This document shows positions 1,849-55,703 of a stretch of 55,703 bases of DNA, in pieces; the stretch's first letter is position 1, and every line of letters begins with the position of its first letter. Position numbers and translations under genes: made by a program. The notes beneath the pieces are model-generated. The model was not told the origin of the DNA, did no database searches, and saw only the letters and a list, made by a program, of their open reading frames with translations. This DNA comes from a virus: the IMG/VR virus record IMGVR_UViG_3300009709_000006, positions 1 through 55,703 of that record; one strand, 5' to 3'.

Positions 1849-2423
1849 GCGGCCTCCGCTCGCTGGAGCGCAGCCGGGGCCACACCGATCATCGCCGCGA
1901 CAGTCTCAAGGACGGCTCGCTTGGAGGCGGCAAACTCTTTGGCGTCCATAGACCGCCGGTTTTGCGACTTGGCCTCCCGCACCACCACGATCGGCCCGCG
2001 GACCACGATGGCGGCGAATTGGTCTTTTGATCGTGCGAAGGCGGCCACCCGCAGCGCGGCGGCTTTTGTGCCCGCATCAATGATGGCTTCGTCGTAATAG
2101 CCGGCGTCGATCAGCGCCCGCTTGCGAAGGTGTTCCGGTGAGGGGAATTGGTCTGTGAGGTGTTCGGGCAGATTCTGCCAGGCCTCGCGTAGCCATGCGA
2201 ATTCATGGTTGTGGGTCGCCTGTGAACGCTGCTTCTCCTCAACCAGGGTGTAGACTTCGCCGATGACGTATTGGGCGTCGGCCTTTCGCTGGTAGCTTTT
2301 GAGCGGAACCATGGCGTCGCCCGTCCAACGCATTGGAACGGGCGCCAGGGCCGCGGAGCCACCAGCGACGGGGTTCTTAGCCCCGCCGCCGTCCTGGCTG
2401 CTATGGATGGGTGTGAAAGGCAT
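1845..2423 (-). CDS. Hypothetical protein downstream of recT (possibly DUF1367-like; tentative)
   Basis: ORF track. The ATG at 2423 overlaps the recT stop. The motif THNHEFAWLREAWQNLPE...LRKRALIDAGYY is recalled only loosely. Confidence 0.5.
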   Translation of the reverse strand: MPFTPIHSSQDGGGAKNPVAGGSAALAPVPMRWTGDAMVPLKSYQRKADAQYVIGEVYTLVEEKQRSQATHNHEFAWLREAWQNLPEHLTDQFPSPEHLRKRALIDAGYYDEAIIDAGTKAAALRVAAFARSKDQFAAIVVRGPIVVVREAKSQNRRSMDAKEFAASKRAVLETVAAMIGVAPAALQRAEAA

Positions 2424-3388
2424 CACGCGGCGTTCTCAGCCATGAATTGCTGATCGGCGGCGGCGAGGCGCGCGCGGGCCTTGTCGATTTCCCTTTTGAT
2501 CTCCAGCGCTTCGCCCTTAGAGCGCGCCCAGAACTCCTTAAGCGGCTGGGCGTTGACGCTTTCGAACCAGGTCAGTTTGGCGGCTCCAGAAACGTCGCGC
2601 AGAAACTCCGATATCCGGTCGGCCACCTTGCCGAGTTGCACGGATTCGATAGGCTCGTGCGGATCGAATTGAAACAGGATGCCGCCCCCGTTGACGCGGG
2701 CGAGGCGCTCTTGGGTTTGAAGGTTTTCGATGGCGTCGCTGGGCGTGACGTCCACAAGGGCGGCGCGATCCAATTCAGCGGCCTCGTAAAGGCCTGAAGT
2801 ATCCTCAGGGAAGGCCTTGCGTAGAGCCTGAGCTTCGGCGCATTTGCAGATCATGATCCGGCCCATTTTTGGCCAGTTGCCGTCAAGCTGCGAATTACCG
2901 GTCGGCAGGCGCTTGCCTTTTTCGTCGTTCCAAGCCCATTCGTCTCGAATAGGCGCGAATTCGTCCCAATAGGCGACGCCGCTTACAGGCTTCCAACCGC
3001 CGTCGCGCTGCGTATCTGCGATGTAGATTTTGACGACGGCCTTTACGATGCCGAGCGGATTTAGCGGCCCTTTGAGCGAAGGGTCATATTCGATCATAGC
3101 CTCTTCTTCGTCCGGCCGATAGCGACGGCTTCGCGCGGCGATCGTGCGCAGACCGTCAATTGTCGTGATGATCGACATGCGCCGCTTTTTCGGATCGTCC
3201 TTGTTAAAAACGATAGCGCTGATCTGCTTTCGAAACGGATCTAAGCCGGCGTTTCGTGCGACTGTGACGAACAGGTTGAACTCGTCATTATTGCAATCCT
3301 TGGCGACGGTGTCCTTGATCAGCTTGAGTTGCGCCGGGGAATAGACCGTCGCTGATGCGTTCAGGGCGACAAGAGCGTTCATGGTCAC
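2423..3388 (-). CDS. recT: RecT/Bet-family single-strand annealing recombinase
   Basis: Motifs TIDGLRTIAARS...Y and MICKCAEAQALRKAFPE..SGLY are typical of RecT/Bet (PF03837-like). Confidence 0.8.
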   Translation of the reverse strand: MTMNALVALNASATVYSPAQLKLIKDTVAKDCNNDEFNLFVTVARNAGLDPFRKQISAIVFNKDDPKKRRMSIITTIDGLRTIAARSRRYRPDEEEAMIEYDPSLKGPLNPLGIVKAVVKIYIADTQRDGGWKPVSGVAYWDEFAPIRDEWAWNDEKGKRLPTGNSQLDGNWPKMGRIMICKCAEAQALRKAFPEDTSGLYEAAELDRAALVDVTPSDAIENLQTQERLARVNGGGILFQFDPHEPIESVQLGKVADRISEFLRDVSGAAKLTWFESVNAQPLKEFWARSKGEALEIKREIDKARARLAAADQQFMAENAA

Positions 3389-3975
3389 TTGCTCCGGATT
3401 GTGAGGGAAGGTGCGGCGTTGGATAGGGTCGCGCCGGGGATTTCAGGAGGCAGGGCGGCTATGGCCGCGTCGCGGGCGTCCCTATCCTGCGGAAGCGCCT
3501 CGATGGCCTTGGCGCGGGCCTTGAGCGCGTCGCCCAACGCCTTTTTGTCGAGCGTAGGGTCTGCCGGTTTCCAATAATCCGCAGGGATGAGCGCCTCATC
3601 AGTGATGATGACTTTTGGCGCCCGAAGGCCCAGGGAAACCGTCGCGATGGCGCGCTCGACTTTGGGGATTTCAGCGATAGACATCGCTTGTTCAATCAGC
3701 GCCCGCCGCTGTTCAATCCGCGCCTCAAATCGGTCCTTGCGGGCGTCCATATTGGACATGACCGAATTGAGCCCCATTATCATGGCTGTGTCGTTTGCTA
3801 TGCCGATCAGCAAACCGTCGATTGCCTCAAACAGGTTGGTTTCGCCCTCCACCATATCGGCTAGGAAGTCTTCATCATCTCCAGCCAAGGCGATCACGCC
3901 TTCACGAAGAGCTTTGGCGGCTTCAGCTTCCTTGATAGGATCAAGAAATACTTGCGGTTTTGCGCGCGCGTTCAT
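3385..3975 (-). CDS. Siphovirus Gp157-like protein (recombination-associated)
   Basis: Coiled N-terminal half. The C-terminal pattern ATVSLGLRAPKVIITDEALIPADYWKPADPTLDKKALGDALK...GATLSNAAPSLTIR matches my recollection of the Sipho_Gp157 family. It lies adjacent to recT. Confidence 0.6.
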   Translation of the reverse strand: MNARAKPQVFLDPIKEAEAAKALREGVIALAGDDEDFLADMVEGETNLFEAIDGLLIGIANDTAMIMGLNSVMSNMDARKDRFEARIEQRRALIEQAMSIAEIPKVERAIATVSLGLRAPKVIITDEALIPADYWKPADPTLDKKALGDALKARAKAIEALPQDRDARDAAIAALPPEIPGATLSNAAPSLTIRSK

Positions 3976-4151
3976 CACATCAGTCCTATGCTATGAAGAA
4001 TGGCCCAACCCAGAACGCCGGCGCCAGCGAGTTCCGCGCCTAGGCGAAAGGTTTCAAGCCAGGGTTTCGGGTCGCCCAAGCGGCGGATGTAGGCGGGGCG
4101 CACCTCGCGCACGGCGAGCTTTCCCAACGGGTCTAGGTCGGCTTCCGTCAT
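3975..4151 (-). CDS. Small protein with hydrophobic C-terminus, 58 aa (below ORF-track cutoff)
   Basis: My translation is MTEADLDPLGKLAVREVRPAYIRRLGDPKPWLETFRLGAELAGAGVLGWAILHSIGLM. A GGGAGGG SD lies 4 nt upstream, and the stop overlaps the next start. Confidence 0.5.
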   Translation of the reverse strand: MTEADLDPLGKLAVREVRPAYIRRLGDPKPWLETFRLGAELAGAGVLGWAILHSIGLM

Positions 4152-4192
4152 GCCGCCCTCCCATGTCGAAGGGTTTCGACCCGCCGCATCGC

Positions 4193-4408
4193 CTAGATCA
4201 ACTCTGCTGCGGCGTTGGCGTGTGGCCGCTGGAGCATCCGCGTCGCCATCGCGTCTGACTGTAGGAAATCCATCTGCAGGCGCTTGTGCATCGCCAGCCG
4301 ATTGCTCGCGTCCTCAAGGGATAGAATGCGCGCCTCGCTATGCGGATCGTCGGGGATTACCTCTATGATCCAACGACCACATGTGGATGGGTGATAGCGG
4401 GAGGTCAT
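4193..4408 (-). CDS. Hypothetical protein
   Basis: ORF track. ATGA overlap with the upstream gene. Confidence 0.5.
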   Translation of the reverse strand: MTSRYHPSTCGRWIIEVIPDDPHSEARILSLEDASNRLAMHKRLQMDFLQSDAMATRMLQRPHANAAAELI

Positions 4409-5109
4409 GACGCTACCCGCAAAGAGCCATCAATATTGAGCGCGTAGGCGACGCCAGGCTCTATCGTGAAGTCGCCATAGGTCTGTCCGACCATGCCGGC
4501 GAAGACGGCTATAAGAGGATAGGCGGCTCCATCCCACTCGCCGTAGGCAGCGAGCATGATGGCGCCGTCTATGCCTGCTTTCGCCGTGCCATTGGGGCCA
4601 AGGGCGGCAGCGATGCTGTGTTTGCCCGTGGTCGCCGCCGCCGAGCCATAGCCCGTGGTCGCCGCCGCCTCGTCTGTCGCCTTGGCGCTGGAGAAAACCA
4701 GATCATGACGAGGCTTGGCGAGATAGCCTAGAACCGAACCCATTCCCGCGGTGCGCGTGGTAATCACCACTTCCATCCATGGGGCTTTGATCTTGCCATT
4801 TAGATCAACCGCAAGGGCCGCATCGTATCGGACAATGCCGAGCACAAGATTGCCGGCGGCGACGTCGTTGAGGTTGCCCAAAAGCGACCAATCGCCCATG
4901 CCGTAGGGGTTGCAATGCAGCCCTTGGCCGCATTCTGGGCGGGGCGACCAATCGGGCGCTGTCGTCCGCGCTTCCGGGGTTAAGTCCCACTGGAAATCTC
5001 CATAAGACTTACCGTCAGAAGCCCATGTGCGAATGCCATAGGCCCAGTTGATCTCGGGTGGCGCTTCCGATTCCGGCGCGGCCGCGGCTGATTTCTTGGC
5101 TCGCGCCAT
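4405..5109 (-). CDS. Hypothetical protein; N-terminal CGxGLH-containing domain plus Gly/Ala/Thr-rich C-terminal half
   Basis: ORF track, with high GC3. Motifs seen are FQWDL...ECGQGLHCNPYG and ATTGYGSAAATTGKHSIAAALGPNGTAKAG. Confidence 0.6.
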   Translation of the reverse strand: MARAKKSAAAAPESEAPPEINWAYGIRTWASDGKSYGDFQWDLTPEARTTAPDWSPRPECGQGLHCNPYGMGDWSLLGNLNDVAAGNLVLGIVRYDAALAVDLNGKIKAPWMEVVITTRTAGMGSVLGYLAKPRHDLVFSSAKATDEAAATTGYGSAAATTGKHSIAAALGPNGTAKAGIDGAIMLAAYGEWDGAAYPLIAVFAGMVGQTYGDFTIEPGVAYALNIDGSLRVAS

Positions 5110-5492
5110 TAGACTTTCCCCTGTTGTTTGAGGCGGTTGACTCTCTGGGTGAGGTAGGCGAACGTCTGTGGCGCAGCGCGCTCAAGATTCGCGAAGCCGG
5201 TTCCGACGCTATCCATCGGAAAGACGACGATGCGGTCAAACTGGAGCGCCAAGAACAAGGGTTTCATATCCTCGTCGATCACTGCGCAGTTGTGGGCGAG
5301 GTCATCGTCGGACCAATATCGGCTCGGAGCCGCGAGTGTTGCGATGCCAACCGCATTGGGTTCGTCTCGCATCTCGCGGGCTTGGCCGCCGTAGCCGACG
5401 CGGGCCTCGTTATCGCCGAACACCCAAAGGACGTCGGGATTGGCCTGGGCGTCGGCGCGGCAGTAGCGATGGATGAAGATCAGCGGCATCAT
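5109..5492 (-). CDS. Conserved-looking hypothetical protein (VFGDNEARVGYGGQA...NAVGI motif)
   Basis: ORF track. It overlaps both neighbours. Confidence 0.6.
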   Translation of the reverse strand: MMPLIFIHRYCRADAQANPDVLWVFGDNEARVGYGGQAREMRDEPNAVGIATLAAPSRYWSDDDLAHNCAVIDEDMKPLFLALQFDRIVVFPMDSVGTGFANLERAAPQTFAYLTQRVNRLKQQGKV

Positions 5493-5683
5493 GCGACCCC
5501 GTTAAAACTGTGGTCGCCGATTTGGCGCGTCGCTTTCCGGCTCAACCGATCGAAGATCGGCGTCAGGGCCGGGTTCAGCAGGCCATCCTGCAGGCGCAGC
5601 GCTTCTGTGGCCGCGCAAAGCTTGAGGTCGGCGGCGCCCATCTCGGCGAACAACCGAGCAAGGGTTTCGTCGGGGCGGTTCAC
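5489..5683 (-). CDS. Hypothetical protein
   Basis: ORF track. The GTG start overlaps the upstream stop (GTGA). Confidence 0.45.
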   Translation of the reverse strand: MNRPDETLARLFAEMGAADLKLCAATEALRLQDGLLNPALTPIFDRLSRKATRQIGDHSFNGVA

Positions 5684-5940
5684 GCTGCACCCCGGACGGC
5701 TTCGCAGAAGAACTTTGGCTCAGCCTTCGCCTCGCGGGCCGCGATCAACTCTTGACCGCGCTTCACGCAGAACTCGCCAATCTGGATGGCGTGCTCGGGG
5801 TTCGCGAAGATGGTGATTTCACCTTCAGCGGACTTGATGTGGATGACCGCACGACCACGCTCCGAACCAGAGCCAAGGTCGAATACCTCGACAGAGTCAG
5901 TGGGTTCGCAAGACAGGTAGAAGGTGACGTCTAATCCCAT
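5680..5940 (-). CDS. Hypothetical protein
   Basis: ORF track 5680-5943. The ATG at 5940 overlaps the upstream stop. Confidence 0.5.
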   Translation of the reverse strand: MGLDVTFYLSCEPTDSVEVFDLGSGSERGRAVIHIKSAEGEITIFANPEHAIQIGEFCVKRGQELIAAREAKAEPKFFCEAVRGAA

Positions 5941-20495: not shown

Positions 20496-20571
20496 TGCGG
20501 AATAGGGAAGTAGCCATCCCGCCTGGTTCATACCCAGGAGATCGCCGGTGCGAATCCGGCTTCCGCTCCCA
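20496..20571 (+). tRNA. tRNA-like element, anticodon CAU (Met/Ile2-type), non-canonical T and D loops
   Basis: Hand-folded cloverleaf. Acceptor 20496-20502/20561-20567 (6 bp plus a U:U at 1:72). U8. D stem GGGA/UCCC. Anticodon stem CCUGG/CCAGG with loop UUCAUAC. Variable loop AGAUC. T stem GCCGG/CCGGC with loop UGCGAAU. Encoded CCA. Confidence 0.45.
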
Positions 20572-23296: not shown

Positions 23297-23899
23297 ATGG
23301 CGTTTGATTGGGATGCGGTTGAGCGCGAATTTCGAACCGGACAAGATTCCGTGTCGAAAATCAGTAGAAAATTTGGCGTGAGCCATACCGCGATCAATAA
23401 GCGCGCCAAACGTGAAGGGTGGACAAGAAACCTGTTTCCAAAAGAGCAGAGTGAGGGTTTAGCTCCCAAGGTTTCAGCCGAGGTTGCAATTCCGGTTTCG
23501 GCCGCTTTGAAACCTGAAACTACAAAAAAGGAATATCCGAACTTAAAGCGCATTCCTCCTGGCCAAAGCGGCAATCCCGCAGGGCGCCCGGTGGGGTCGC
23601 GAAACAAGCTCGGCGAGGCGTTTATCGAAGCGCTCCACAACGATTTTACGGTTCATGGGCCGAAGGTCATTGAGACTGTCAGGGTCGATAAGCCCGATCA
23701 GTACCTAAAGGTCATCGCCACGATTTTGCCCAAGCAGGTCGAAATTAAAGAGGGCGCTTTTGATGGGATTGGCGATGAAGAACTCGCCGCTCTTCTCGTT
23801 GCAGCCCGATCGGCTCTCGGCGTTAATGGCGGCGATGGAGCGGGAACAAGCGCAGAGAATTTCGCGCAACCGACTGAAACACTATCGAAGCTACATTAA
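23297..23899 (+). CDS. terS: Terminase small subunit (HTH N-terminus, SGNPAGRP motif)
   Basis: SVSKISRKFGVSHTAINKRAKREGW plus GQSGNPAGRPVGSRNK. It lies immediately upstream of TerL. Confidence 0.6.
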   Translation: MAFDWDAVEREFRTGQDSVSKISRKFGVSHTAINKRAKREGWTRNLFPKEQSEGLAPKVSAEVAIPVSAALKPETTKKEYPNLKRIPPGQSGNPAGRPVGSRNKLGEAFIEALHNDFTVHGPKVIETVRVDKPDQYLKVIATILPKQVEIKEGAFDGIGDEELAALLVAARSALGVNGGDGAGTSAENFAQPTETLSKLH

Positions 23900-25211
23900 G
23901 CAGCAGGAGTTTCACGCGGCCGGGGCGAAATTCCGCGAGCGGCTTTTCATGGCCGGTAATCAGCTCGGTAAGACCCTGGCTGGCGGCGCTGAAGTGGCGA
24001 TGCACCTCACGGGACAATATCCCGCTTGGTGGGTTGGGAAACGATTTGATCGGCCGACAACGTGGATTGCTGGGTCGGAATCTGGCGAACTGACGCGCGA
24101 CGGTGTTCAGCGCATTATGCTAGGTCCCCCAAGCGATCAAACGGCGTGGGGGACGGGATGCATTCCGTTTGATGCATTGGTTGATACGAGTTCGCGGCCT
24201 GGCGTTGCTGATGCCGTAGCTACCATCGTAGTTAAACATGTCAGCGGCTTAAATTCGACATTGCTGCTTAAGAGCTACGATCAGGGGAGATCAAAGTGGC
24301 AGGCCAACACCGTTGACGGTGTGTGGTTTGACGAGGAGCCGCCGTTAGACGTTTATTCGGAAGGGCTGACGCGCGCAAACTCTACGTTTGGGCCGATCAT
24401 CGTCACATTCACGCCACTCAATGGTATGTCAGATGTTGTGACGCGGTTTTTGATGCCGCCCGCGGACGATAAAGGCGCCGCTGATCGCGCCGTCATCCAA
24501 ATGACGATTGAGGATGCGGAGCATTATACGCCTGAAGAACGGGCTAAGATTATCGCGTCGTATCCAGCCCACGAGCGGGAAGCGAGATCAAAGGGTATTC
24601 CCACGATGGGTTCCGGTCGGGTATTCCCGATTGAGGAATCGGCGATTACCTGTGAGCCGTTTGCAATTCCAAATCATTGGCCGCAGATAAACGGTTTAGA
24701 TTTCGGATGGGATCACCCTTTTGCGGCGACTAACATCGCATGGGATAGAGACGCAGACTGTGTTTATGTCTGTAAGGAATATGCAGCTCGCGAGACGACG
24801 CCGGTAATTCACGCGGCGTCAATTAAGCCCTGGGGCGATTGGATACCTTGCTCGTGGCCCCACGACGGGCTGCAACACGATAAAGGATCTGGCGAAGAGT
24901 TGGCCAAGCAGTACAAAGCGCAAGGCCTAAATATGTTGCCCGAAAAATCGACGTTCGCCGACGGCGGCAACGGGGTTGAGGCTGGCGTTATGGACATGCT
25001 CGACCGAATGCAAACCGGTCGATGGAAAGTGTTTTCGACGTGCGGCGGATGGTTTCAAGAATTTCGCCTTTATCACCGGAAAGACGGTGTGATCGTCAAG
25101 CTTAAGGATGATCGAATTTCGTCGTCGCGATACGCGCTGATGATGCTGCGTTTCGCAAAGACCAAGCCCCGCAGTTCTCAAATTATCATCCCTAATTTTG
25201 GAGCCGTGTGA
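23826..25211 (+). CDS. terL: Terminase large subunit
   Basis: QQEFHAAGAKFRERLFMAGNQLGKT (Walker A), YPAWWVGKRF, VWFDEEP (Walker B), and a C-terminal nuclease region. The start is uncertain (23760-23835). Confidence 0.85.
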   Translation: MAAMEREQAQRISRNRLKHYRSYIKQQEFHAAGAKFRERLFMAGNQLGKTLAGGAEVAMHLTGQYPAWWVGKRFDRPTTWIAGSESGELTRDGVQRIMLGPPSDQTAWGTGCIPFDALVDTSSRPGVADAVATIVVKHVSGLNSTLLLKSYDQGRSKWQANTVDGVWFDEEPPLDVYSEGLTRANSTFGPIIVTFTPLNGMSDVVTRFLMPPADDKGAADRAVIQMTIEDAEHYTPEERAKIIASYPAHEREARSKGIPTMGSGRVFPIEESAITCEPFAIPNHWPQINGLDFGWDHPFAATNIAWDRDADCVYVCKEYAARETTPVIHAASIKPWGDWIPCSWPHDGLQHDKGSGEELAKQYKAQGLNMLPEKSTFADGGNGVEAGVMDMLDRMQTGRWKVFSTCGGWFQEFRLYHRKDGVIVKLKDDRISSSRYALMMLRFAKTKPRSSQIIIPNFGAV

Positions 25212-25486
25212 TGTATAATGCCTACGCTCCAAAAGGCGGATTTCCGGTCACTCCAAGCGACACGGCCCCGCTGAATCCTGGAACCGGATATGGACCGACA
25301 GCCGGCACGCCGGTTCCGATCGCAACGCAGCTCTATATTGGGGGTGCGGGCAACGTTTCGCTGATCTCCGAAGACGGCAGCCCATTGCTTTACCAGGGTG
25401 TTCCTGCCGGATCGGTCATATGGATGCGGACGGTTCAGGTTAAAGCCACCGGCACAACGGCCACCAACATTTTAGCTCTGTACTGA
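25211..25486 (+). CDS. Hypothetical protein between terminase and portal
   Basis: ORF track. TGATG overlap. Confidence 0.55.
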   Translation: MYNAYAPKGGFPVTPSDTAPLNPGTGYGPTAGTPVPIATQLYIGGAGNVSLISEDGSPLLYQGVPAGSVIWMRTVQVKATGTTATNILALY

Positions 25487-27732
25487 TGAGAGACGAGGAG
25501 CTTTTACAGATTGTTCGCGGAGAGCGAGCGAGGTCGATCGGGTTTGACATTGATCCTGTGTTGCTGGCGGATCGAGAAAAGGCGCTCTTTTATTATAAGG
25601 GCGAGATGCCGGATGTTCCGTATTTGCCGAACCGCTCGAAGGCGGTATCGACCGATGTGGCGGACACCATTGAAACGATCATGCCTGATCTGGTGGAGAT
25701 TTTCACCGGCGGCGATGATGTGGCGAGTTTCATCCCGTCCAATCAGGCCGATGTTGAGGGCGCTCAGCAAGAGACTGAGTATCTTCACCATGTGATTTTC
25801 GGGACCAATGCAGGGTTTATGACGCTGTACACGTTCCTGAAAGACGCGCTGCTCGTTAAAACGGGCGTCGTGAAATGGTGGTGGGAGAATAAGCCCGAAC
25901 CGAAGCTCGAAACCTTCGAGGAGAAGACTGCGGCCGAGGTCGGTATGGCCATGCAGGATGGTGAGTTGGGCGACCTGAAGTTCGACGGCGTTCCCTATGA
26001 GATCGGGGACGATTTGCCGCCGGGCGCCGAAGATGCGCCGCTGTTCAGCTTCACAATGAAGAGCGAAGGCCCAGACGGCCAAGCGAAAATCCACGCCATT
26101 CCGCCAGAGGACTTCACGGTGTCGCGCGATTGCGTAACGCTGGCGGACACCACCTATTGCGCTTTCCGCTCCCGGCCGCGGGCTCAAAAGCTTAAGGAAG
26201 ATGGCCACGACCCAGCAATCGTTGATCGCCTTCCCCCTTATGGCTTGGCGCGAAACGAACAGGTTCAACTCGCGCGCGACACGGCGGGTGAGCACTATTT
26301 CCCCATTGGGTCAGACGGCCCAAACCGCGACATGCGTGCCGTGGAGGTGGTCGAACACTTTGTTCGAATTTACGACGACAAGGAAAAGCGCATCAAGATT
26401 TGGCGCGTGTTCACGGGTGGAAACGAGTCCATTCTGATCGACAAGGAAGAGGTTGATCAGATACCTTTTGCGGCCATCACGCCGTTTGTGGTTACGCACC
26501 GGTTTTATGGCGAATCCATCGCCGACAAAGTCATGGAAATCCAACGCATCAAGACGGCACTGATGCGGGGACAGCTTGACTATATCTACTTCAGCCTTAA
26601 TCAGCGCCATTACGTGGATATGCAGGCGGCAGATACATTCACGATTTCGGATTTACTGGATAATCGGCCTGGCGTACCCGTTCGCGGGAACGGGCCTAAC
26701 GCCGTAACAGCTCTTCAAACGGGTGGGCAACCAGCCCCATATCTTGAGGCGCTTGAGTATTTTTCGACCGTCGCGGAAAGTCGCACTGGCGTCGTGCGCA
26801 ACTCGCAGGGCCTCAACCCTGACACGCTGCACGACACGGCAGCCGGCGCCATGGCGCTCATGAACATGGCCCAACGACGGGTCAGGATGATCGCCCGCAT
26901 TTTCGCCGAGACCGGCGTGAAGGACATGTTCTTAGGCGTTCATGCCCTCATCCGAAAGCACGCCTCGCAAAAGCAAATCACGCGCCTAAGCGGAAAGTTC
27001 GTCGAAGTCGATCCGACCCAATGGGCCGAACGGACAGACATGACGATTGAGATCGGCGTCGGTGCGGGCGGCGCTCAGCAGAAGTTCGCATCTCTTACGA
27101 AGGTGATTGAACTCCAGGGTGAGATCGCGAAGGAACTGCCCTGCTCCGGGCTGGTTACGCCTGAGAACGCTTACAGGGCCATCGTGGATGCTTCCAAGGC
27201 GTCTGGCCTCAAATCTCCAGAGCAGTATTTCACCGATCCCGCGACGACGCCTCCTAAGCCGCCGGCTCCAAACCCTGATATGCTGAAGGTTCAAGCGCAG
27301 TCACAAGCTGATCAGGCCAAGTTGCAACAGAATGGCCAAGTCGAGCAGATGAAGGATGCGCGGGAGAAGATGGCGCTTCAGGCCGCTCACGAGCGTGAAT
27401 CTGCCAAACTCCAAGCGACGCAGCAGATCGACCAGGGGCGCCTGAGTTTGGACGCGCTGAAGCTTCAGCAGGAAAAAGAATTGGCCCTCGCCAAACTTCA
27501 ACAGGAGCGAGAGTTGGCAATCATGGAGATGCGAGCGAAGTACGGTATCGCAGCTATGAATGCCGCGACCCAGCTTCAGGTCCAGGCGTCAGAATCATCC
27601 GACGCTCAGGCCATGGCAGATGCTGATCGTCACCATGACATGACCAAGACGGCTTTGGATCACGCCAGATCGCTCCACGAGGACGTGATGGCTGATAAAA
27701 AGGTGGCAGAACAAAAGTCGGCGCCCCAATGA
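25486..27732 (+). CDS. Portal protein with long C-terminal coiled-coil (barrel-like) extension
   Basis: REKALFYYKGEMPDVPYLPNRSKAVSTDVADTIETIMPDLVEIFTGGDD is typical of P22/podovirus-type portals. The C-terminus is Q/A/K/L-rich heptads. Confidence 0.8.
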   Translation: MRDEELLQIVRGERARSIGFDIDPVLLADREKALFYYKGEMPDVPYLPNRSKAVSTDVADTIETIMPDLVEIFTGGDDVASFIPSNQADVEGAQQETEYLHHVIFGTNAGFMTLYTFLKDALLVKTGVVKWWWENKPEPKLETFEEKTAAEVGMAMQDGELGDLKFDGVPYEIGDDLPPGAEDAPLFSFTMKSEGPDGQAKIHAIPPEDFTVSRDCVTLADTTYCAFRSRPRAQKLKEDGHDPAIVDRLPPYGLARNEQVQLARDTAGEHYFPIGSDGPNRDMRAVEVVEHFVRIYDDKEKRIKIWRVFTGGNESILIDKEEVDQIPFAAITPFVVTHRFYGESIADKVMEIQRIKTALMRGQLDYIYFSLNQRHYVDMQAADTFTISDLLDNRPGVPVRGNGPNAVTALQTGGQPAPYLEALEYFSTVAESRTGVVRNSQGLNPDTLHDTAAGAMALMNMAQRRVRMIARIFAETGVKDMFLGVHALIRKHASQKQITRLSGKFVEVDPTQWAERTDMTIEIGVGAGGAQQKFASLTKVIELQGEIAKELPCSGLVTPENAYRAIVDASKASGLKSPEQYFTDPATTPPKPPAPNPDMLKVQAQSQADQAKLQQNGQVEQMKDAREKMALQAAHERESAKLQATQQIDQGRLSLDALKLQQEKELALAKLQQERELAIMEMRAKYGIAAMNAATQLQVQASESSDAQAMADADRHHDMTKTALDHARSLHEDVMADKKVAEQKSAPQ

Positions 27733-28139
27733 CAATCATTGCCTTTCGTGACGGCGTTGTTGCTGCCGATTCCATGTCGTGCAACGAAAACGGCTATCGC
27801 ACGGGAATTTGCAAAAAGCTCTTTCGGCACGGCGATGAAGTTGTGGCGATAATGGGACGGGCGAGCGAGTCTTACCCATTAATGAAATGGTACAGCGAGC
27901 GCAGGCAGGAAAAGCAGCCTGACGACGGATCAATCATTGTTTTCGCCCAATCTGGAATAACGATTTATGAAAACGGCGGTTGGCAGCCTGAGCATGAGGC
28001 ACCGTTCTACGCATATGCGGCCGGTTCAGAAATCGCTTTAGGCGCGATGGCAATGGGCGCTTTTGCTGTTGAGGCTGTAGAAGCGGCGATCAAAATAAGC
28101 ATTTGGTGTGGTGGTCCAGTTGTAAGCGAGCGGCTGTGA
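27729..28139 (+). CDS. HslV/proteasome-beta-like Ntn-hydrolase-fold protein, 136 aa
   Basis: MTIIAFRDGVVAADS (Thr2 after Met), KKLFRHGDEVVAIMGRASES, YAAGSEIALGAMAMG and AIKISIWCGGPVV parallel HslV motifs from memory. Confidence 0.5.
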   Translation: MTIIAFRDGVVAADSMSCNENGYRTGICKKLFRHGDEVVAIMGRASESYPLMKWYSERRQEKQPDDGSIIVFAQSGITIYENGGWQPEHEAPFYAYAAGSEIALGAMAMGAFAVEAVEAAIKISIWCGGPVVSERL

Positions 28140-28405
28140 CCACAAATGCCGAAGCCAAGGCCATGGCGGACGGCCAGCGCGCACGCGCCGCCATGGAATA
28201 CATGGAACCTATCTTTGCTCGGCTTCGTGAGAGCGCTACGTCGAAGCTTTTCGCGAGTGCGGTCGGCGACGCCGCTTTGCGCGAGGATCTGTATCGCACC
28301 GTCGCCACCATCAACGCCTTAGAGGCGGAAATCTGTCGCGCCATCAAGGCTGGCGAAATGGCCGCTATTGTGAAGGATCACTTTGAGCGCGTAACGCCAA
28401 AATGA
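28136..28405 (+). CDS. Hypothetical protein
   Basis: The GTG at 28136 overlaps the upstream stop (GTGA). ORF track 28103-28405. Confidence 0.5.
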   Translation: MTTNAEAKAMADGQRARAAMEYMEPIFARLRESATSKLFASAVGDAALREDLYRTVATINALEAEICRAIKAGEMAAIVKDHFERVTPK

Positions 28406-28671
28406 CGGCTAAAATTGTCAAGCTTTCTACAGTTACGGCGCCGACGCTTGAGGTTGATGACGACCTCGTTCAGGGGCTGAAAGCGCTCTTGGAAATGGCT
28501 GAAGCGGGCAAAATTCAAGGCTTGGCTTATGTGAGCGTCGCGACATCGGGCGTAGGTCAATACACGGGTTGCGGAACTGGATGGCACGGCCACCTAGGCG
28601 GCGTCCACATCGTTCTCGGCGCTCTGACAATTTTGCAAAATCGGCTCATCTTCGAGGAAAATCTCGCTTAA
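28402..28671 (+). CDS. Hypothetical protein
   Basis: ORF track. ATGA overlap. Confidence 0.5.
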   Translation: MTAKIVKLSTVTAPTLEVDDDLVQGLKALLEMAEAGKIQGLAYVSVATSGVGQYTGCGTGWHGHLGGVHIVLGALTILQNRLIFEENLA

Positions 28672-28803
28672 GCTATTCGGGTGGCGCGCCTAAACGCCCA
28701 AGGCTTTGGCCGATATTCCGCTTTGGCAAGCGGTTTGCCCGAACCATCTAGTCACGCCGCCCGGTCCATCCTGGCACAGCGGCCTATCACTAAGGTAGAA
28801 TCT

Positions 28804-29856
28804 ATGTCCGCATCGGATATGGCCGGCGAACGGCTGTCGATCACTGACGCCGCAAAGCTGCTTTCCCACGGCGCGCCGGCCGCCGCCGAGCCCAATCCAC
28901 CCCCTGCGCCCGTCGAAGCCGCCCAGAGCGCGCCGGAGCCGCAGGAAACCCCCATTCAGGCCGATCCCACGGCTGAACTCGACCTCACAGAGGAAACTCC
29001 AGGTGAGGTCGCCGCGACCATCGAACCGGTATCGCCGGCAGTCGATCCACCGCACTATTGGGACGCCTCGCAGAAGGAGGCGTTTGCGCAGTTATCCCCT
29101 GAACTTCAGCGCGTTGCGGTTGACCAGTGGAAAAACGGCGAGCGCGTCATCAACAAGGCGCAACAGGAGGCGGCTGAAGCTCGTAAGGTCGCTGAAAACG
29201 CGACCAAGCAGGCCGAAGCCAAGGCGGCTGAGGCTACTCAATTCGTTGAGAAGCTGAACGCAATCGTTCCCAAAGCCGAAGAGGTTTTCGCGGATCGATG
29301 GAGCAAGGTGAATTGGGTTGAACTAGCGACGGTTCAGCCCGACGAGTACGTCAAATATCGCGCGATTCACGACGCCGAACAGATGCAACTTCAGCAGCTC
29401 CAAGCTGCCAGGAAGGAAGCGTCTGAGAAGGCCGAAAGTCAGCGTGTCGAGGCCGAAAAGACCGCGCGTCAGCAGCGCGCGACTGAGCAAGGTCAACTTC
29501 TGCGCAATCTGGTTCCCGATCTGGCGGACGCCAAAGAAGGTCCAGCACGTTTGAAGCGGCTAGGCGATTACATGCTCGCCCAAGCCATTACCCCTGACCA
29601 GATCGCCAACGCCGGCGCCCGCGAAATCTCCCTCGCGTACAAGGCCATGCTTTTCGACGAAGCGAGAGCTCGAGCGGCTGCGAAAGCGCCCAAACCTGCG
29701 CCCACGCCGGCCAAACCTGCCGTGAAGCCGGGCGGCGCGAACCCCACACCCACAAAACCAGCGCCAGCGCAGGCGATGGAGCGTCTCTCAAAGACCGGCT
29801 CCCGCAACGACGCCATGGCAGCGCTCAAAGCTCAAAGGATCGCTCAACGTGGCTAA
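28804..29856 (+). CDS. Scaffolding protein (coiled-coil, Ala/Glu/Lys/Gln-rich)
   Basis: It sits directly upstream of the major capsid gene. Long helical low-complexity sequence. The ATG at 28804 has an AAGG SD. Confidence 0.6.
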   Translation: MSASDMAGERLSITDAAKLLSHGAPAAAEPNPPPAPVEAAQSAPEPQETPIQADPTAELDLTEETPGEVAATIEPVSPAVDPPHYWDASQKEAFAQLSPELQRVAVDQWKNGERVINKAQQEAAEARKVAENATKQAEAKAAEATQFVEKLNAIVPKAEEVFADRWSKVNWVELATVQPDEYVKYRAIHDAEQMQLQQLQAARKEASEKAESQRVEAEKTARQQRATEQGQLLRNLVPDLADAKEGPARLKRLGDYMLAQAITPDQIANAGAREISLAYKAMLFDEARARAAAKAPKPAPTPAKPAVKPGGANPTPTKPAPAQAMERLSKTGSRNDAMAALKAQRIAQRG

Positions 29857-30814
29857 CGCTGCAATTGCAAACACCTCTACCACTCTAAACCAAGTCGGTA
29901 TTCGCGAAGACTTGGAAGATATTATCTATCGGGTAGCTCCGGAAGAAACGCCATTTACGAGTAACATCGGGACTGCTACTGCCACGAATGTTAAGCATGA
30001 TTGGCAGACGGAAACTCTCGCCGCTCCCAGTGCTGCAAACGCGGCTTATGAAGGCGGCGACATTTCCACTTTCCAAGCGCCCAACGTCCCGACTCGTCTT
30101 GAGAACATCTGCCAGATTTTCACCAAGACGGCGCTTGTTTCGGGCACTGACGATGCTGTCATCTCGGCCGGCCGCGACGACGAAATGGACCGCCAAAAGG
30201 TGCTTCGCGGCATCGAAAACAAGCGGGACATCGAAGCGGCCTGCACCGTCAACTACGGGTCCAACGCGGAAACCGCAGGCACCATCCCTCGTCGCATGGC
30301 GGGCTGTCTCGCTTGGGGGCAGACCAACACCTCGGTCGGAACCGGTGGTTCCAACGGCGGCTGGAATGGCTCAACCGTTACGGCTGCGACGAACGGCACG
30401 CAGCGGTCGTTCTCGGAATCAATCGTCAAGGCCGGCATGGCGTCGGTATTCGCGGCCGGCGGCAAGCCCTCCCAAGCCTACATGGGCGGCTCGCTAAAGC
30501 AGGAGTTCAGTTCGTTTACCGGGATCGCCGAAATTCGAACCGAAGCGGCTGGCGGCAAGATGGCCACCATCTACGGCGCCGCCGACGCGTATCTGTCGGA
30601 CTTCGGGATGCTGATGCTCATTCCGCACCAGTACAGCTTCGCGCGGGACTGCATCATCATCGACCCGGAAATGTGGGCTGTCGCGACCCTTCGTGGACAG
30701 GAAGCCGTTCCGCTGGCGAAGACCGGCGATGCGGACAAGTTCCTGATCACGGCGGAAAAGACGCTGGTCTCTCGTAACGAGGCCGCGAGCGTTTTCCTTC
30801 GCGATCTCCAGTAG
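29849..30814 (+). CDS. Major capsid protein, HK97 fold (DUF5309/SU10-like)
   Basis: IREDLEDIIYRVAPEETPFTSNIG...HDWQTETLA...YEGGD...RLENICQIFTKTALVSGT. Confidence 0.8.
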   Translation: MANAAIANTSTTLNQVGIREDLEDIIYRVAPEETPFTSNIGTATATNVKHDWQTETLAAPSAANAAYEGGDISTFQAPNVPTRLENICQIFTKTALVSGTDDAVISAGRDDEMDRQKVLRGIENKRDIEAACTVNYGSNAETAGTIPRRMAGCLAWGQTNTSVGTGGSNGGWNGSTVTAATNGTQRSFSESIVKAGMASVFAAGGKPSQAYMGGSLKQEFSSFTGIAEIRTEAAGGKMATIYGAADAYLSDFGMLMLIPHQYSFARDCIIIDPEMWAVATLRGQEAVPLAKTGDADKFLITAEKTLVSRNEAASVFLRDLQ

Positions 30815-30816
30815 GA

Positions 30817-31044
30817 TTAAGGGATGGGGGCGGCTTGGACTGTCGCCCCCGCTTCTTTATCGGCCCTTTCTTGCGCGTATTTATCGGCCAATCTTCCGTG
30901 ATGAACGTGCAATTCAGCAAATTTTTGCGTTAACGTTGTAAGGCCCAAGCCTATTTGGCACCTTTTATTATGTAGCGCGCCATAGTGTTGGTGCCGTCGC
31001 ATATGATAACCGGCGCGTTTAGCAGTATAAAGATTATCTAACAT
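30817..31044 (-). CDS. Possible His-rich small protein (moron, second gene)
   Basis: ORF track. TAATG coupling to 31044-31367. The C-terminus runs through the terminator hairpin, so it is uncertain. Confidence 0.35.
   Translation of the reverse strand: MLDNLYTAKRAGYHMRRHQHYGALHNKRCQIGLGLTTLTQKFAELHVHHGRLADKYAQERADKEAGATVQAAPIP
30826..30860. terminator. Hairpin terminator after capsid gene (potentially bidirectional)
   Basis: GGGGGCG (30826-30832) pairs with CGCCCCC (30844-30850), followed by GCTTCTTTA. Confidence 0.6.
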
Positions 31045-31367
31045 TATGCGACCGACCCCGTTTCTTCCGTGATCAGCAAATAGTCGTTGGGCGCAACAAC
31101 TTCGGTTTGTATCGTCCCGGTTTCCGCGTCGTAATAGCTTCTTAACATGTGGCTTGGCGGTAGTTTTTTTGTTAGTTCAAGCATTTCTTCTACGGCAGCG
31201 CGAGCAAATATTCTAAATGCTCCCACGCCGTAGAGGCCACGCTCAACAGCGTCTTCCCAAGGAATGGTGCGTTCGTTTTCGGCCCAACCAAATGCAACGT
31301 CTTCGGCGTTCCACATCGCCTTAGCTACTCGGTCAATCATTTCGCTAACTAGATCACGATTGCTCAT
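31044..31367 (-). CDS. Hypothetical protein (minus-strand moron inside the structural module)
   Basis: The ATG at 31367 has a GGGAGGA SD 7 nt upstream. 107 aa. Confidence 0.55.
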   Translation of the reverse strand: MSNRDLVSEMIDRVAKAMWNAEDVAFGWAENERTIPWEDAVERGLYGVGAFRIFARAAVEEMLELTKKLPPSHMLRSYYDAETGTIQTEVVAPNDYLLITEETGSVA

Positions 31368-31521
31368 CGCATCATCCTCCCAATCCATCGCCTGACGTCG
31401 ATGCGCCAACGTCCGATCCGTATAACGGCGCCGAAGTAGGGTGTGAGGCGAAACATCCGCAGATTTTACCACCAACCGCCGCCCGGTCCAACGGCACAGC
31501 GGCTAAACTGAAGGAAATCCC

Positions 31522-48580: not shown

Positions 48581-49744
48581 TCACGCCTTGATGAGTCCCC
48601 GCTTGATCTGCGCGTTTCGAGCGACTTGGCTGTCGCGTGGAAGGTACTTTTCCAGAATGTTCGTGGCGGAGCGCAAACTGTGTCCAGTGATCGCGGCGAT
48701 CTCTGGTATTTCGCAGCCAGCGCGTGCGAGCTGGACGACGCAGCTATGTCTCAGCCACCGCATCAAGAGTCCCTTTCTGGCCCCGTCCCTTTCGGCCTGA
48801 TCACGAACTTCGCTGAACACATGGCTAAGCCGATCTGAGGTATAGGCCTTACCTGTCACCTCATCCCGAAACAGAAAGAGCGCGCCATCGCCAGATGCGT
48901 TCAGGAGATCCCTCAGATTGTCTGAGACGGGCAACGTGACGTAGGCATTGGTCTTCTGTTGGCGAAACCGAAACATCCCCTCAGCGGGCAGATATTCGGC
49001 GCCAGGCCTAAATGATCTAACGTCGCCGAGCCGTTGGCCGATTTCCCATTCAAGCAGAATCATGAGCGCGATTGAGGGACGCCCCATGTCGCGCGCGACG
49101 GTGACGAAAGCGTCTATATCGGATTGCTCCCACACGCCGGCCATGGACTTTGGGACGTAGATTTTGATCCCCTCGCAGGGATTGTCCTGGCGCCATTTCT
49201 TTTCTATGGCCCGTTGCATGATCTGGCGCAGCGCGTCATAGGTTGAGCGCTTCGTTTGCGGCTTGTCGTTATAGAGCGCGAGAAAGGCCTTAACGCGGTC
49301 CGTGGTGATGCTGGTCGGGTCTGGGTGGTGGTTCGCTTCTGACCAGGCGAGAATGGCGTTGATGCTGGTGGTGTAGTTGCTCTGGGTCTTGGCGCTAAGG
49401 TGCCCCCAATCGCTCTGCCAAGCCCGCACAAGGGCTTTTAGCGTGCGCCCAGTCTCCTGCGTCGGTTTTCCAGATCGCCGCTCCTGAAGCTCCTTATAAA
49501 GTGCAGCGGCGTCACGTTGGATTTCGGCGACCTCGCGCGCGTCGGTTAAGTCGCCCCGTCGCTTACCTTGGCGGGGAAGCGGGATTGCTGGAGACCAATC
49601 GGACGGCCGGAGCCTTTCGGGAACCTGAAACAGAACCCGATGCGTTCCGTCCCTTCGCGGCTTTAGGACGACGTAGCGCCCGAGTTCGAGCTTCACGGAT
49701 GGCATCGGGATCGACGGCCCACGGATCTGCGTTAAGATTTTCAT
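48581..49744 (-). CDS. int: Tyrosine integrase
   Basis: The C-terminal catalytic region has MRWLRHSCVVQLARAGCEIPEIAAITGHSLRSATNILEKYL (R...HxxR...Y). It is adjacent to attP. Confidence 0.9.
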   Translation of the reverse strand: MKILTQIRGPSIPMPSVKLELGRYVVLKPRRDGTHRVLFQVPERLRPSDWSPAIPLPRQGKRRGDLTDAREVAEIQRDAAALYKELQERRSGKPTQETGRTLKALVRAWQSDWGHLSAKTQSNYTTSINAILAWSEANHHPDPTSITTDRVKAFLALYNDKPQTKRSTYDALRQIMQRAIEKKWRQDNPCEGIKIYVPKSMAGVWEQSDIDAFVTVARDMGRPSIALMILLEWEIGQRLGDVRSFRPGAEYLPAEGMFRFRQQKTNAYVTLPVSDNLRDLLNASGDGALFLFRDEVTGKAYTSDRLSHVFSEVRDQAERDGARKGLLMRWLRHSCVVQLARAGCEIPEIAAITGHSLRSATNILEKYLPRDSQVARNAQIKRGLIKA

Positions 49745-55134: not shown

Positions 55135-55703
55135 CTATGCCTCCTCAACCGCAACGGCGCCGACCGGAATCGTACCGTTCGCCTCGTGCTCCGCCACCTC
55201 CTCAATGTACGCGAGCGCCCATTCGTCAGGGATTGAGCTGAAGTCTTGGCATGGCCAACCTGGGTGCGCTTTTTGATGGATAAGCGCTCCAGCGGTCGAA
55301 AACCCAAATTCTTTTTGCAGTTTCCAACCGAGCTCGCCGCCCAAGTTAACAAGGTGGCCGGCAGTACACATTGCCGTGTTGCAGATATTTTCCTCTCGGA
55401 TGTAATGGCCAGGACCGAAGGTTGACTGTTTGAAAATACGCTCCCTCGCTTGAATGCCCTTCAAGATTTTTGTGTAGGGATTTTCGACCAGCGGAACTCG
55501 GTCAAACAGTTCTTGCACGTCGCTGGCGCTGTAGCCCGCCGACAGCACGTCGCTGGCGCTGTAGCCCGCCGACCGCAGGGCGCTGGCGCTGTAGCCCGCC
55601 GACCGCAAGGCGCTGGCGCTGTAGCCCGCCGACCGCAAGGCGCTGGCGCTGTAGCCCGCCGACAGCACGTCGCTGGCGCTGTAGCCCGCCGACAGCACGT
55701 CGC
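55135..55703 (-). CDS. C-terminal part of decapeptide-repeat protein (5' part is 1-281 across the junction)
   Basis: ORF track 55135-55698, open at the window edge. SAGYSAS units are followed by a ~130-aa non-repeat domain (QELFDRVPLVENPY...NTAMCTAGHLVNLGG...). Confidence 0.75.
   Translation of the reverse strand, partial: DVLSAGYSASDVLSAGYSASALRSAGYSASALRSAGYSASALRSAGYSASDVLSAGYSASDVQELFDRVPLVENPYTKILKGIQARERIFKQSTFGPGHYIREENICNTAMCTAGHLVNLGGELGWKLQKEFGFSTAGALIHQKAHPGWPCQDFSSIPDEWALAYIEEVAEHEANGTIPVGAVAVEEA
55519..55703. repeat. 30-bp tandem repeat array, right part (6.2 units)
   Basis: Same unit as 1-218. The last 73 nt are identical to nt 1-73. Confidence 0.95.

Follow-up and report, generated by a model that had tools for sequence, protein, structure and literature searches.

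A PPH-family proteasome-like hydrolase gene at the portal junction of a phage head module

Family, fold and closest described systems

Fuchs, Alva and Lupas (2021; PMC8665760) defined PPH as a family of proteasome-like proteins of about 140 residues, encoded in Caudovirales or in bacterial genomes with phage genes on the flanks. In their account the family belongs to group I, near BPH and HslV, has no propeptide, lacks helix H2 and the C-terminal elements S12/H5, and retains the Thr1/Asp17/Lys33 triad together with Gly47. In the published cluster map PPH radiates from BPH, which the authors regard as independent of, and not regulated by, an unfoldase. Here we analyzed a gene of 136 codons at positions 27729..28139 (+ strand) of IMG/VR virus record IMGVR_UViG_3300009709_000006, a stretch of 55,703 nucleotides referred to below as the window. 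Sequence comparison places its product in this already described family, in a minority subclass by its active site. The reading that we consider probable on balance, its proposed mechanism included, is that the gene encodes a minimal N-terminal-nucleophile (Ntn) hydrolase of the proteasome-beta/HslV type, carried as an optional mobile accessory. An earlier note, written from the letters alone, had proposed such a hydrolase in the slot of a prohead protease. The fold proposed there is correct, and the family is one that had already been catalogued, not a new one.

The open reading frame (ORF) was matched from end to end by phrog_1040 of the PHROGs, labelled 'peptidase HslV family' (E = 1.3e-25), and a hidden Markov model (HMM) of the PPH family scored the protein at 4.7e-42. 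Searches of Pfam (E <= 1) and NCBIfam (E <= 10) returned no HslV or proteasome model and no other match, a single-sequence phmmer search of PDB sequences gave only weak matches and a spurious designed TIM-barrel, and a single-protein scan of viral contigs gave no matches. When a profile built from homologs was compared with PDB sequences, it matched BPH (4e-9), the immunoproteasome subunit beta5i (6e-8) and HslV (1e-7). The AlphaFold2 model from a 113-sequence alignment reached a predicted local distance difference test (pLDDT) score of 96.4 and a predicted template modelling (TM) score of 0.89, and was used instead of an earlier, poor model from a 10-sequence alignment (pLDDT 57). Foldseek matched this model to BPH (1.7e-8), HslV (~1e-7) and 20S beta subunits in the PDB with a probability of 1.0 and TM-scores of 0.67-0.77 normalised to the query. 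The best viral model (BFVD) was the 'proteasome subunit beta' of Caulobacter phage CcrBL9 (TM 0.91, root-mean-square deviation 1.6 Å). By model and profile, the Ntn/proteasome fold that the earlier note had proposed is established.

The predicted structure has a single helix (residues 45-57) between strands S4 and S5, and in the profile alignments HslV and beta5i carry 15-30 extra residues opposite the missing H2. The model ends in a strand (residues 132-135) right after helices H3 and H4, with no S12/H5, and thus comprises the core fold only, without a capsid-targeting extension. Because helix H2 and the C-terminal elements are missing, the protein is about 40 amino acids (aa) shorter than HslV, as the earlier note had stated.

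Several features correspond to the published definition of PPH. The protein has 136 aa (about 140 in the definition; median of 145 aa among homologs) and starts with Met-Thr, as do 109 of 113 aligned homologs. It shows an Ntn beta-sandwich core with equivalents of the catalytic Thr, Asp and Lys and of the oxyanion Gly (Thr1/Asp17/Lys33/Gly47), and it lacks both H2 and S12/H5. Like the described members, it comes from a tailed phage or prophage with a proteobacterial host, and the window contains genes for the large terminase subunit (TerL), portal, scaffold, major capsid protein (MCP), integrase and RecT. This assignment uses proxies, namely phrog_1040 and phage homologs labelled HslV or proteasome, rather than the authors' cluster map or reference set (e.g. 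WP_042125023.1). Unlike PPH as described, the window copy is embedded between portal and scaffold genes. The family has been described computationally only, so that no function can be transferred to the window copy.

Among characterized systems, BPH (PDB 5OVS, 5OVT and 5OVU) is the best structural and profile match and has the FYAxGSGxxxALGAM region in common with the window protein. It differs in being longer (about 200 aa), in a first helix pair that is complete, in its long acidic pore loop and in being encoded on a bacterial chromosome. HslV (ClpQ) has the Ntn fold with Thr1, the Met-Thr start, the K-K motif at Lys33 and the region of the G-S-G motif in common with the window protein, with TM-scores of 0.69-0.77. 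In contrast, HslV has about 175 aa, includes helix H2 and is encoded together with hslU, whereas the window protein is missed by the curated HslV and proteasome models, has Ala-Ala-Gly in place of the serine-containing G-S-G motif and has no ATPase partner gene among the window ORFs of at least 380 aa.

This comparison bears on the possibility that PPH rings act as a mimic of HslV, docking on the host HslU (ClpY) hexamer and either redirecting degradation or titrating HslU away from host HslV. The place of HslV among the best structural matches is consistent with such a role, as is the observation, made for phage pSal-SNUABM-04 (PMC7823757), that phages encode an HslV-like part without HslU; a scan of all window ORFs of at least 380 aa likewise found no unfoldase. 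However, the HslV and proteasome models of NCBIfam and Pfam miss the protein even at E = 10 and E = 1, respectively, the family lacks H2 and the C-terminal elements, and it radiates from BPH, which is held not to be unfoldase-regulated. We regard docking on HslU as an unlikely explanation.

Active-site residues and a remodelled second shell

Residue conservation was assessed in 319 homologs aligned to the family HMM, and equivalences with proteasome residues were taken from the profile alignments. Thr2, with its ACA codon at 27732..27734 (+), is the predicted N-terminal nucleophile after removal of Met1. It corresponds to proteasome Thr1, aligned to the mature Thr of beta5 and beta5i, and the position is Thr in 314 of the 319 homologs and Ser in 5, in agreement with the nucleophile predicted in the earlier note. 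Asp14 (27768..27770, +) is the counterpart of Asp17, being aligned to 'AVDS' of beta5i, and is Asp in 316/319; Lys30 (27816..27818, +), the counterpart of Lys33, is conserved in 318/319; and Gly43 (27855..27857, +), which corresponds to the oxyanion-hole Gly47, is conserved in 314/319.

Of the residues that the earlier note named for a check of conservation (Thr2, Lys and Gly-Ser), Thr2 and the lysine are nearly invariant. At the equivalent of Gly128-Ser129-Gly130, where the family has G-S-G, the window protein has Ala97-Ala98-Gly99 (28017..28025, +), and the 'Gly-Ser' within AAGSEIALGAM is out of register with the family motif. Position 97 is Gly in 318/319, the window having the sole Ala, while position 98 is Ser in 261 homologs, Thr in 14 (Ser or Thr in 275/319) and Ala in 17. 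A second replacement, Ser124...Cys127 (28098..28109, +), stands where the family has Asp...Ser/Thr; the family motif D124...S/T127-G-G aligned to proteasome Asp166...Ser169-Gly170. Asp occupies position 124 in 238/319 and Ser in 26, and at position 127 the counts are 133 for Ser, 107 for Thr and 77 for Cys.

These second-shell residues vary in a correlated manner among the homologs. The classes at positions 98/124/127 were S-D-S (110), S-D-T (98), S-D-C (12), A-S-C (8, including the window) and V-S-C (5). While the majority of PPH proteins thus have a Ser/Asp/Ser-Thr second shell, the window protein has Ala98/Ser124/Cys127 and the unique Ala97. The motif of the minority subclass, S-[VI]-W-C-G-G-P, is kept among sequences that are just 35-40% identical, which suggests that the remodelling is a selected variant rather than decay. 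With the primary Thr/Asp/Lys/Gly set intact and the second shell remodelled, the window copy may differ in activity or chemistry from a typical PPH.

A further explanation is that the window copy is not a protease at all, being impaired or re-purposed as a connectase-like ligase or transpeptidase, a small-molecule amidohydrolase or a structural ring. Huber et al. (2016; PMC4792962) described a second triad with Ser129 and Asp166, which protonates the amine of Thr1 and without which proteolysis is not efficient, and the equivalents of these residues and of Ser169 are exactly those replaced by Ala98, Ser124 and Cys127, next to an Ala97 found in no other homolog. The proteasome-like superfamily also includes a ligase, connectase (PMC8665760). 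On the other hand, the primary set is intact, the variant residues form a conserved subclass motif that suggests a working active site, and Cys at position 127 is common among the homologs. A non-proteolytic window copy is unlikely in our estimate. A spurious ORF or pseudogene, for which only the unusual G97A and S98A substitutions could be cited, is highly improbable, and was effectively refuted by the intact, full-length ORF with its end-to-end family match, the very confident model and the overlaps with both neighbouring genes.

The gene in its operon and in related head modules

The gene lies in the late region of the window, which extends from ~22 kb to ~44 kb. Directly 5' of it is a portal gene of SU10 type (25486..27732, +; Pfam SU10_portal, 3e-167; phrog_1216), whose stop overlaps the PPH start in an ATGA at 27729..27732 (+), an arrangement that points to translational coupling. 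Because the ATG at 27729 is the first start in a frame open from 27699, and the earliest possible one after the upstream in-frame stop, the product is expected to begin with Met-Thr, without a propeptide. No Shine-Dalgarno-like motif was seen near this ATG on inspection of the sequence. The position after the portal gene, the ATGA overlap, the MT start and the motifs quoted in the earlier note are all present.

An independent Logan contig encodes an identical PPH protein, and its gene calls give a chain of 4-nt overlaps, portal-ATGA-ORF136-GTGA-89 aa-ATGA-89 aa, followed by the scaffold and MCP genes. The PPH stop accordingly overlaps by GTGA with an orphan 89-aa ORF at 28136..28405 (+), which is joined by ATGA to a second orphan 89-aa ORF at 28402..28671 (+). 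The order given in the earlier note, ahead of the scaffold and capsid genes, therefore stands, whereas direct adjacency to the scaffold gene does not. The head scaffolding protein (28804..29856, +; phrog_3927, 6e-20, with homologous scaffolds in relatives) has 350 aa when counted from the ATG at 28804, which the gene call makes the probable start, the longest ORF opening at a GTG at 28681. The SU10-type MCP (29849..30814, +; Pfam SU10_MCP, 1e-79) has no N-terminal extension by length comparison. A terminator-like hairpin at 30825..30851 (+), with a 10-bp stem, 8 G-C pairs and a T-rich tail, closes the TerS-to-MCP operon.

We considered whether the gene is a self-contained moron with its own signals, and rejected this since a scan for promoters and terminators inside the TerS-to-MCP operon found no signals above chance. 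We likewise sought a transferred cassette of PPH and the small ORFs through homologs of the latter. The ORF at 28136..28405 has no match in Pfam, PHROGs, NCBIfam or PADLOC, and that at 28402..28671 has only weak PHROG matches (E ~0.04) and none in Pfam, NCBIfam or PADLOC. Neither has a homolog in related loci, including those of the closest PPH homologs, and no such cassette was found. PADLOC gave no matches to PPH or the small ORFs, and hence no link to catalogued defence systems.

Related head modules were examined for the presence of PPH, using a profile HMM. LUZ24, Bradyrhizobium ppBeUSDA76-2 and Microcystis Mvi-Yong1342-1, whose portals are related to that of the window, have the order TerL-portal-small ORF-scaffold-MCP with no protease, and no PPH was detected in any of the three. 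PPH is absent from loci L003-L005, L090-L095, L097 and L098, and for L090-L095, L097 and L098 the profile HMM was run over all six-frame ORFs. These PPH-less loci include a prophage in a Caulobacteraceae metagenome-assembled genome (MAG; L097, MCP 70% identical), the IMG/VR loci L091/L092 (MCP 61%), L090 (MCP 60%, TerL 75%) and L093-L095 (MCP 55%), and a Caulobacterales MAG (L098, MCP 60%, portal 54%). Among the six closest head modules by MCP identity (70, 61, 60, 60, 56 and 55%), PPH is present only in the 56% one (L054). In L090 the order is portal-75-aa ORF-scaffold-MCP. The slot that the earlier note took to be that of a prohead protease normally holds a small ORF, not a protease, in modules of the SU10/LUZ24 type.

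Since MCP lengths are alike with and without PPH (316-335 aa in PPH-carrying and 316-318 aa in PPH-less modules), there is no sign of a capsid propeptide. The capsid pathway of close relatives, with a separate scaffold and no propeptide, runs without PPH, which argues that PPH is not an obligatory capsid-maturation protease. The window protein differs from the classical prohead proteases, which are unrelated in fold and nucleophile (HK97 gp4 and T4 gp21 with the herpesvirus-protease fold; ClpP/S49-like enzymes such as lambda gpC). The window gene is like them in lying after the portal and before the scaffold and MCP genes and in its late co-expression. However, it is not conserved in related head modules, comes with no capsid propeptide or targeting extension, and belongs to a head lineage that assembles without a protease.

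Two other loci, L054 (portal 49% and MCP 56% identical) and L053, have the order portal-PPH-small ORF-scaffold-MCP. Vertical inheritance of PPH with the head module was nevertheless rejected, because in similarity to the window protein the PPHs of L054, L053 and L025, which occupy this slot, come only 85th-167th among the 319 homologs. The closest homologs, 44-48% identical, are located elsewhere, ahead of a T7-like portal or within the structural operon of a myovirus. Together with a G+C content of 0.518 against 0.566-0.619 for the flanking head genes, this suggests independent capture of PPH at the portal junction. On these sequence comparisons, PPH is probably an optional, horizontally mobile accessory gene, placed next to the portal in a type of head module from which proteases are normally absent. 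The portal-scaffold junction also accepts other cargo: in the Caulobacterales MAG prophage L098, whose head module is 54-60% identical, ~3.7 kb of unannotated genes on both strands (2141-5858) lie between portal and scaffold. Pfam was uninformative for the cargo ORFs of L097 and L098.

Upstream in the operon lies the TerL gene (23760..25211, +; Pfam Terminase_6N and Terminase_6C). Its longest ORF, opening at a TTG at 23760, overlaps a TerS-like ORF (23297-23899, +) by 140 nt, and translation probably begins further in, at Met 23 or Met 26. Between TerL and portal, a 92-aa ORF (25208-25486, +) matched phrog_12296, 'tail fiber protein' (1.4e-11), an odd label within a packaging module, and has a counterpart of 33% identity at the same position in L093-L095. 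Right after the MCP terminator, a 143-aa ORF (31044-31475, -) is an isolated antisense gene in the late region, with no match in PHROGs or Pfam.

By gene content the window resembles a temperate phage or prophage, with an integrase gene (48581..49744, -) and genes for RecT, a DnaB-like helicase, a methyltransferase and an HNH endonuclease, and a tRNA-Met (CAT) gene (20496-20571, +) stands between the early and late regions. A Caulobacterales host is likely, because the nearest prophage head modules are found in Caulobacterales MAGs. Positions 1-73 are identical to 55631-55703 and consist of a ~30-nt repeat (GCTGGCGCTGTAGCCCGCCGACAGCACGTC...); this duplication of the ends reflects an overlap from the assembly of a circular molecule or else a contig break within tandem repeats.

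Distribution of PPH and its possible roles

Counted as clusters at 50% identity, the family is very large, with 11,320 representatives at E <= 1e-3 (7,603 at E <= 1e-10); almost without exception these are 137-160 aa long and matched from residue 1. Among cultured phages, tblastn found 97-171 PPH records, mostly in genomes of 115-350 kb (phAPEC8-like, phiCbK-like, SPN3US-like, Aeromonas, Vibrio, Rhizobium and Brevundimonas phages). Annotations such as 'HslV family peptidase', 'proteasome subunit beta' or 'Ntn hydrolase' are frequent among them. The expectation of the earlier note that such a fold in this role, or a phage-borne HslV mimic, would be unusual is not supported, as PPH has already been described (PMC8665760) and annotated in these records, mostly away from head genes. 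Jumbo Caulobacter phages (CcrSC, Bertelyvirus sp. and phage C2; NC_048048.2, OP620777.1 and MZ574430.2) carry PPH-like sequences at as many as 4 separate sites in one genome, implying paralogous expansion.

The window gene's position raises the possibility that PPH is a head-assembly protease, made together with the portal and acting while the procapsid assembles or afterwards, either by degrading the scaffold or by trimming it or the portal. An SU10-type module without a protease would thereby gain a step of maturation or scaffold clearance by a threonine protease. Besides the portal-PPH-(small ORFs)-scaffold-MCP order with its 4-nt overlaps and the same slot in L054 and L053, neighbourhoods in other lineages are compatible with such a function. 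In L020, L030 and L061 the order is TerL-PPH-portal(phrog_1216)-small ORF-scaffold. T7-like modules (L079 and L039) have PPH between scaffold and MCP, and the closest homolog of the window protein is two genes upstream of a T7-like portal. PPH precedes the Mu-F-like gene in L067 (TerL-portal-PPH-MuF-scaffold-MCP) and follows it in L011, L028 and L044, and in lambdoid Pseudomonas phages it immediately precedes the terminase. Every annotated head module beside PPH has a separate scaffold and is devoid of a classical prohead protease.

Against this, the closest head modules lack PPH, showing that assembly does not need it, the MCP has no propeptide, the protein is a core fold without a capsid-targeting extension, and the PPH slot differs between lineages. 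In large phages, some of which have a protease of their own, PPH lies amid unrelated genes and far from head genes, and can occupy up to 4 sites in one genome. Its neighbours are ParA/ParB and helicase genes in Rhizobium RHph_N1_10, in phiCbK (gp158) it is between NUDIX, NAPRT and ligase genes, and in SPN3US the homolog, gp1, adjoins tRNA genes. The essential prohead protease of SPN3US is a classical one, gp245, and every head cleavage mapped in this phage is explained by its A-X-E motif; gp1 is absent from the main text of the proteomics paper on this phage.

The frequency of head genes beside PPH was not decisive. In dereplicated IMG/VR loci, a head or packaging gene was found within 0.5-3 kb of PPH in 30-51% (37-51% in another summary of these counts), whereas among metagenome-only loci this was the case in 2/28 within 500 nt and 0/13 within 3 kb (range 0-11%). 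A rough count in IMG/VR contigs of at least 35 kb gave ~7/30, near the random expectation by our own estimate. The IMG/VR and metagenome-only figures are oppositely biased, with IMG/VR contigs having been chosen on hallmark genes and the search seeds having been drawn from IMG/VR. Enrichment of PPH beside head genes was therefore rejected as unproven, as it was not reproduced in the metagenome-only loci. Overall, a role in head assembly is unlikely, although it is the strongest of the alternatives that we considered. The suggestion in the earlier note, a threonine protease in the role of the prohead protease, is not supported on present evidence, given that 5/6 of the closest modules have no PPH, that the MCP has no propeptide and that SPN3US has gp1 in addition to gp245.

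A broader version of this idea, which we hold to be improbable, is that PPH is a portal-associated threonine protease that clears or trims scaffold or other internal proteins as the capsid assembles, in SU10-, T7- and P22/Mu-F-like phages whose head modules have a separate scaffold and no classical protease, possibly as a six-fold ring on the twelve-fold portal. The symmetry argument follows from what is generally known of HslV and of portals. If true, it would add a further, proteasome-type class of phage head protease, with the Ala/Ser/Cys subclass of the window copy as a specialised form.

The commonest neighbour of PPH was a phrog_1745 protein ('DNA transfer protein', ~500 aa, no Pfam match), found at +1/+2 in most of 9 loci, among them the IMG/VR loci L011, L028, L029, L036, L043, L044, L045 and L063. 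It is often accompanied by a Mu-F-like gene or a phrog_332 portal.

For the reading that we favour, an accessory hydrolase, the steps can be proposed on the basis of what is established for Ntn hydrolases in general and for the HslV, BPH and 20S particles. The host methionine aminopeptidase would remove Met1, as expected because Thr is a permitted second residue, and the free alpha-amine and hydroxyl of the Thr would then form the catalytic centre, with Thr1 acting as both nucleophile and general base. Subunits would assemble into a ring or double ring resembling that of HslV or BPH. Because no unfoldase is encoded among the window ORFs of at least 380 aa, the particle would act without ATP or a phage ATPase, cleaving, at a late stage of infection, peptide bonds in polypeptides that are unfolded or only loosely folded.

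Several points weigh against this reading. A function in head assembly would equally predict the tight coupling of PPH to the portal gene and its recurrence in scaffold-bearing head modules of SU10-like, T7-like, Mu-F/P22-like and phrog_156-portal types that lack a classical protease. The window copy lacks equivalents of Ser129 and Asp166, which are needed for efficient proteolysis (PMC4792962), and could therefore have weak activity or a different chemistry. Oligomeric state and activity are extrapolated from homologs only, and our literature search found no experimental study of phage PPH or HslV-like proteins.

PPH spans temperate phages of 40 kb to jumbo phages of 350 kb. The locus in the window offers a compact, testable case, as its PPH-less close relatives are natural controls, and the Ala/Ser/Cys second-shell subclass is a natural experiment on the proteasome 'second triad'. 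Should PPH act on head proteins, capsid maturation would gain a class of threonine proteases; should its targets be host or defence proteins, it would represent a new kind of tool for host takeover late in infection.

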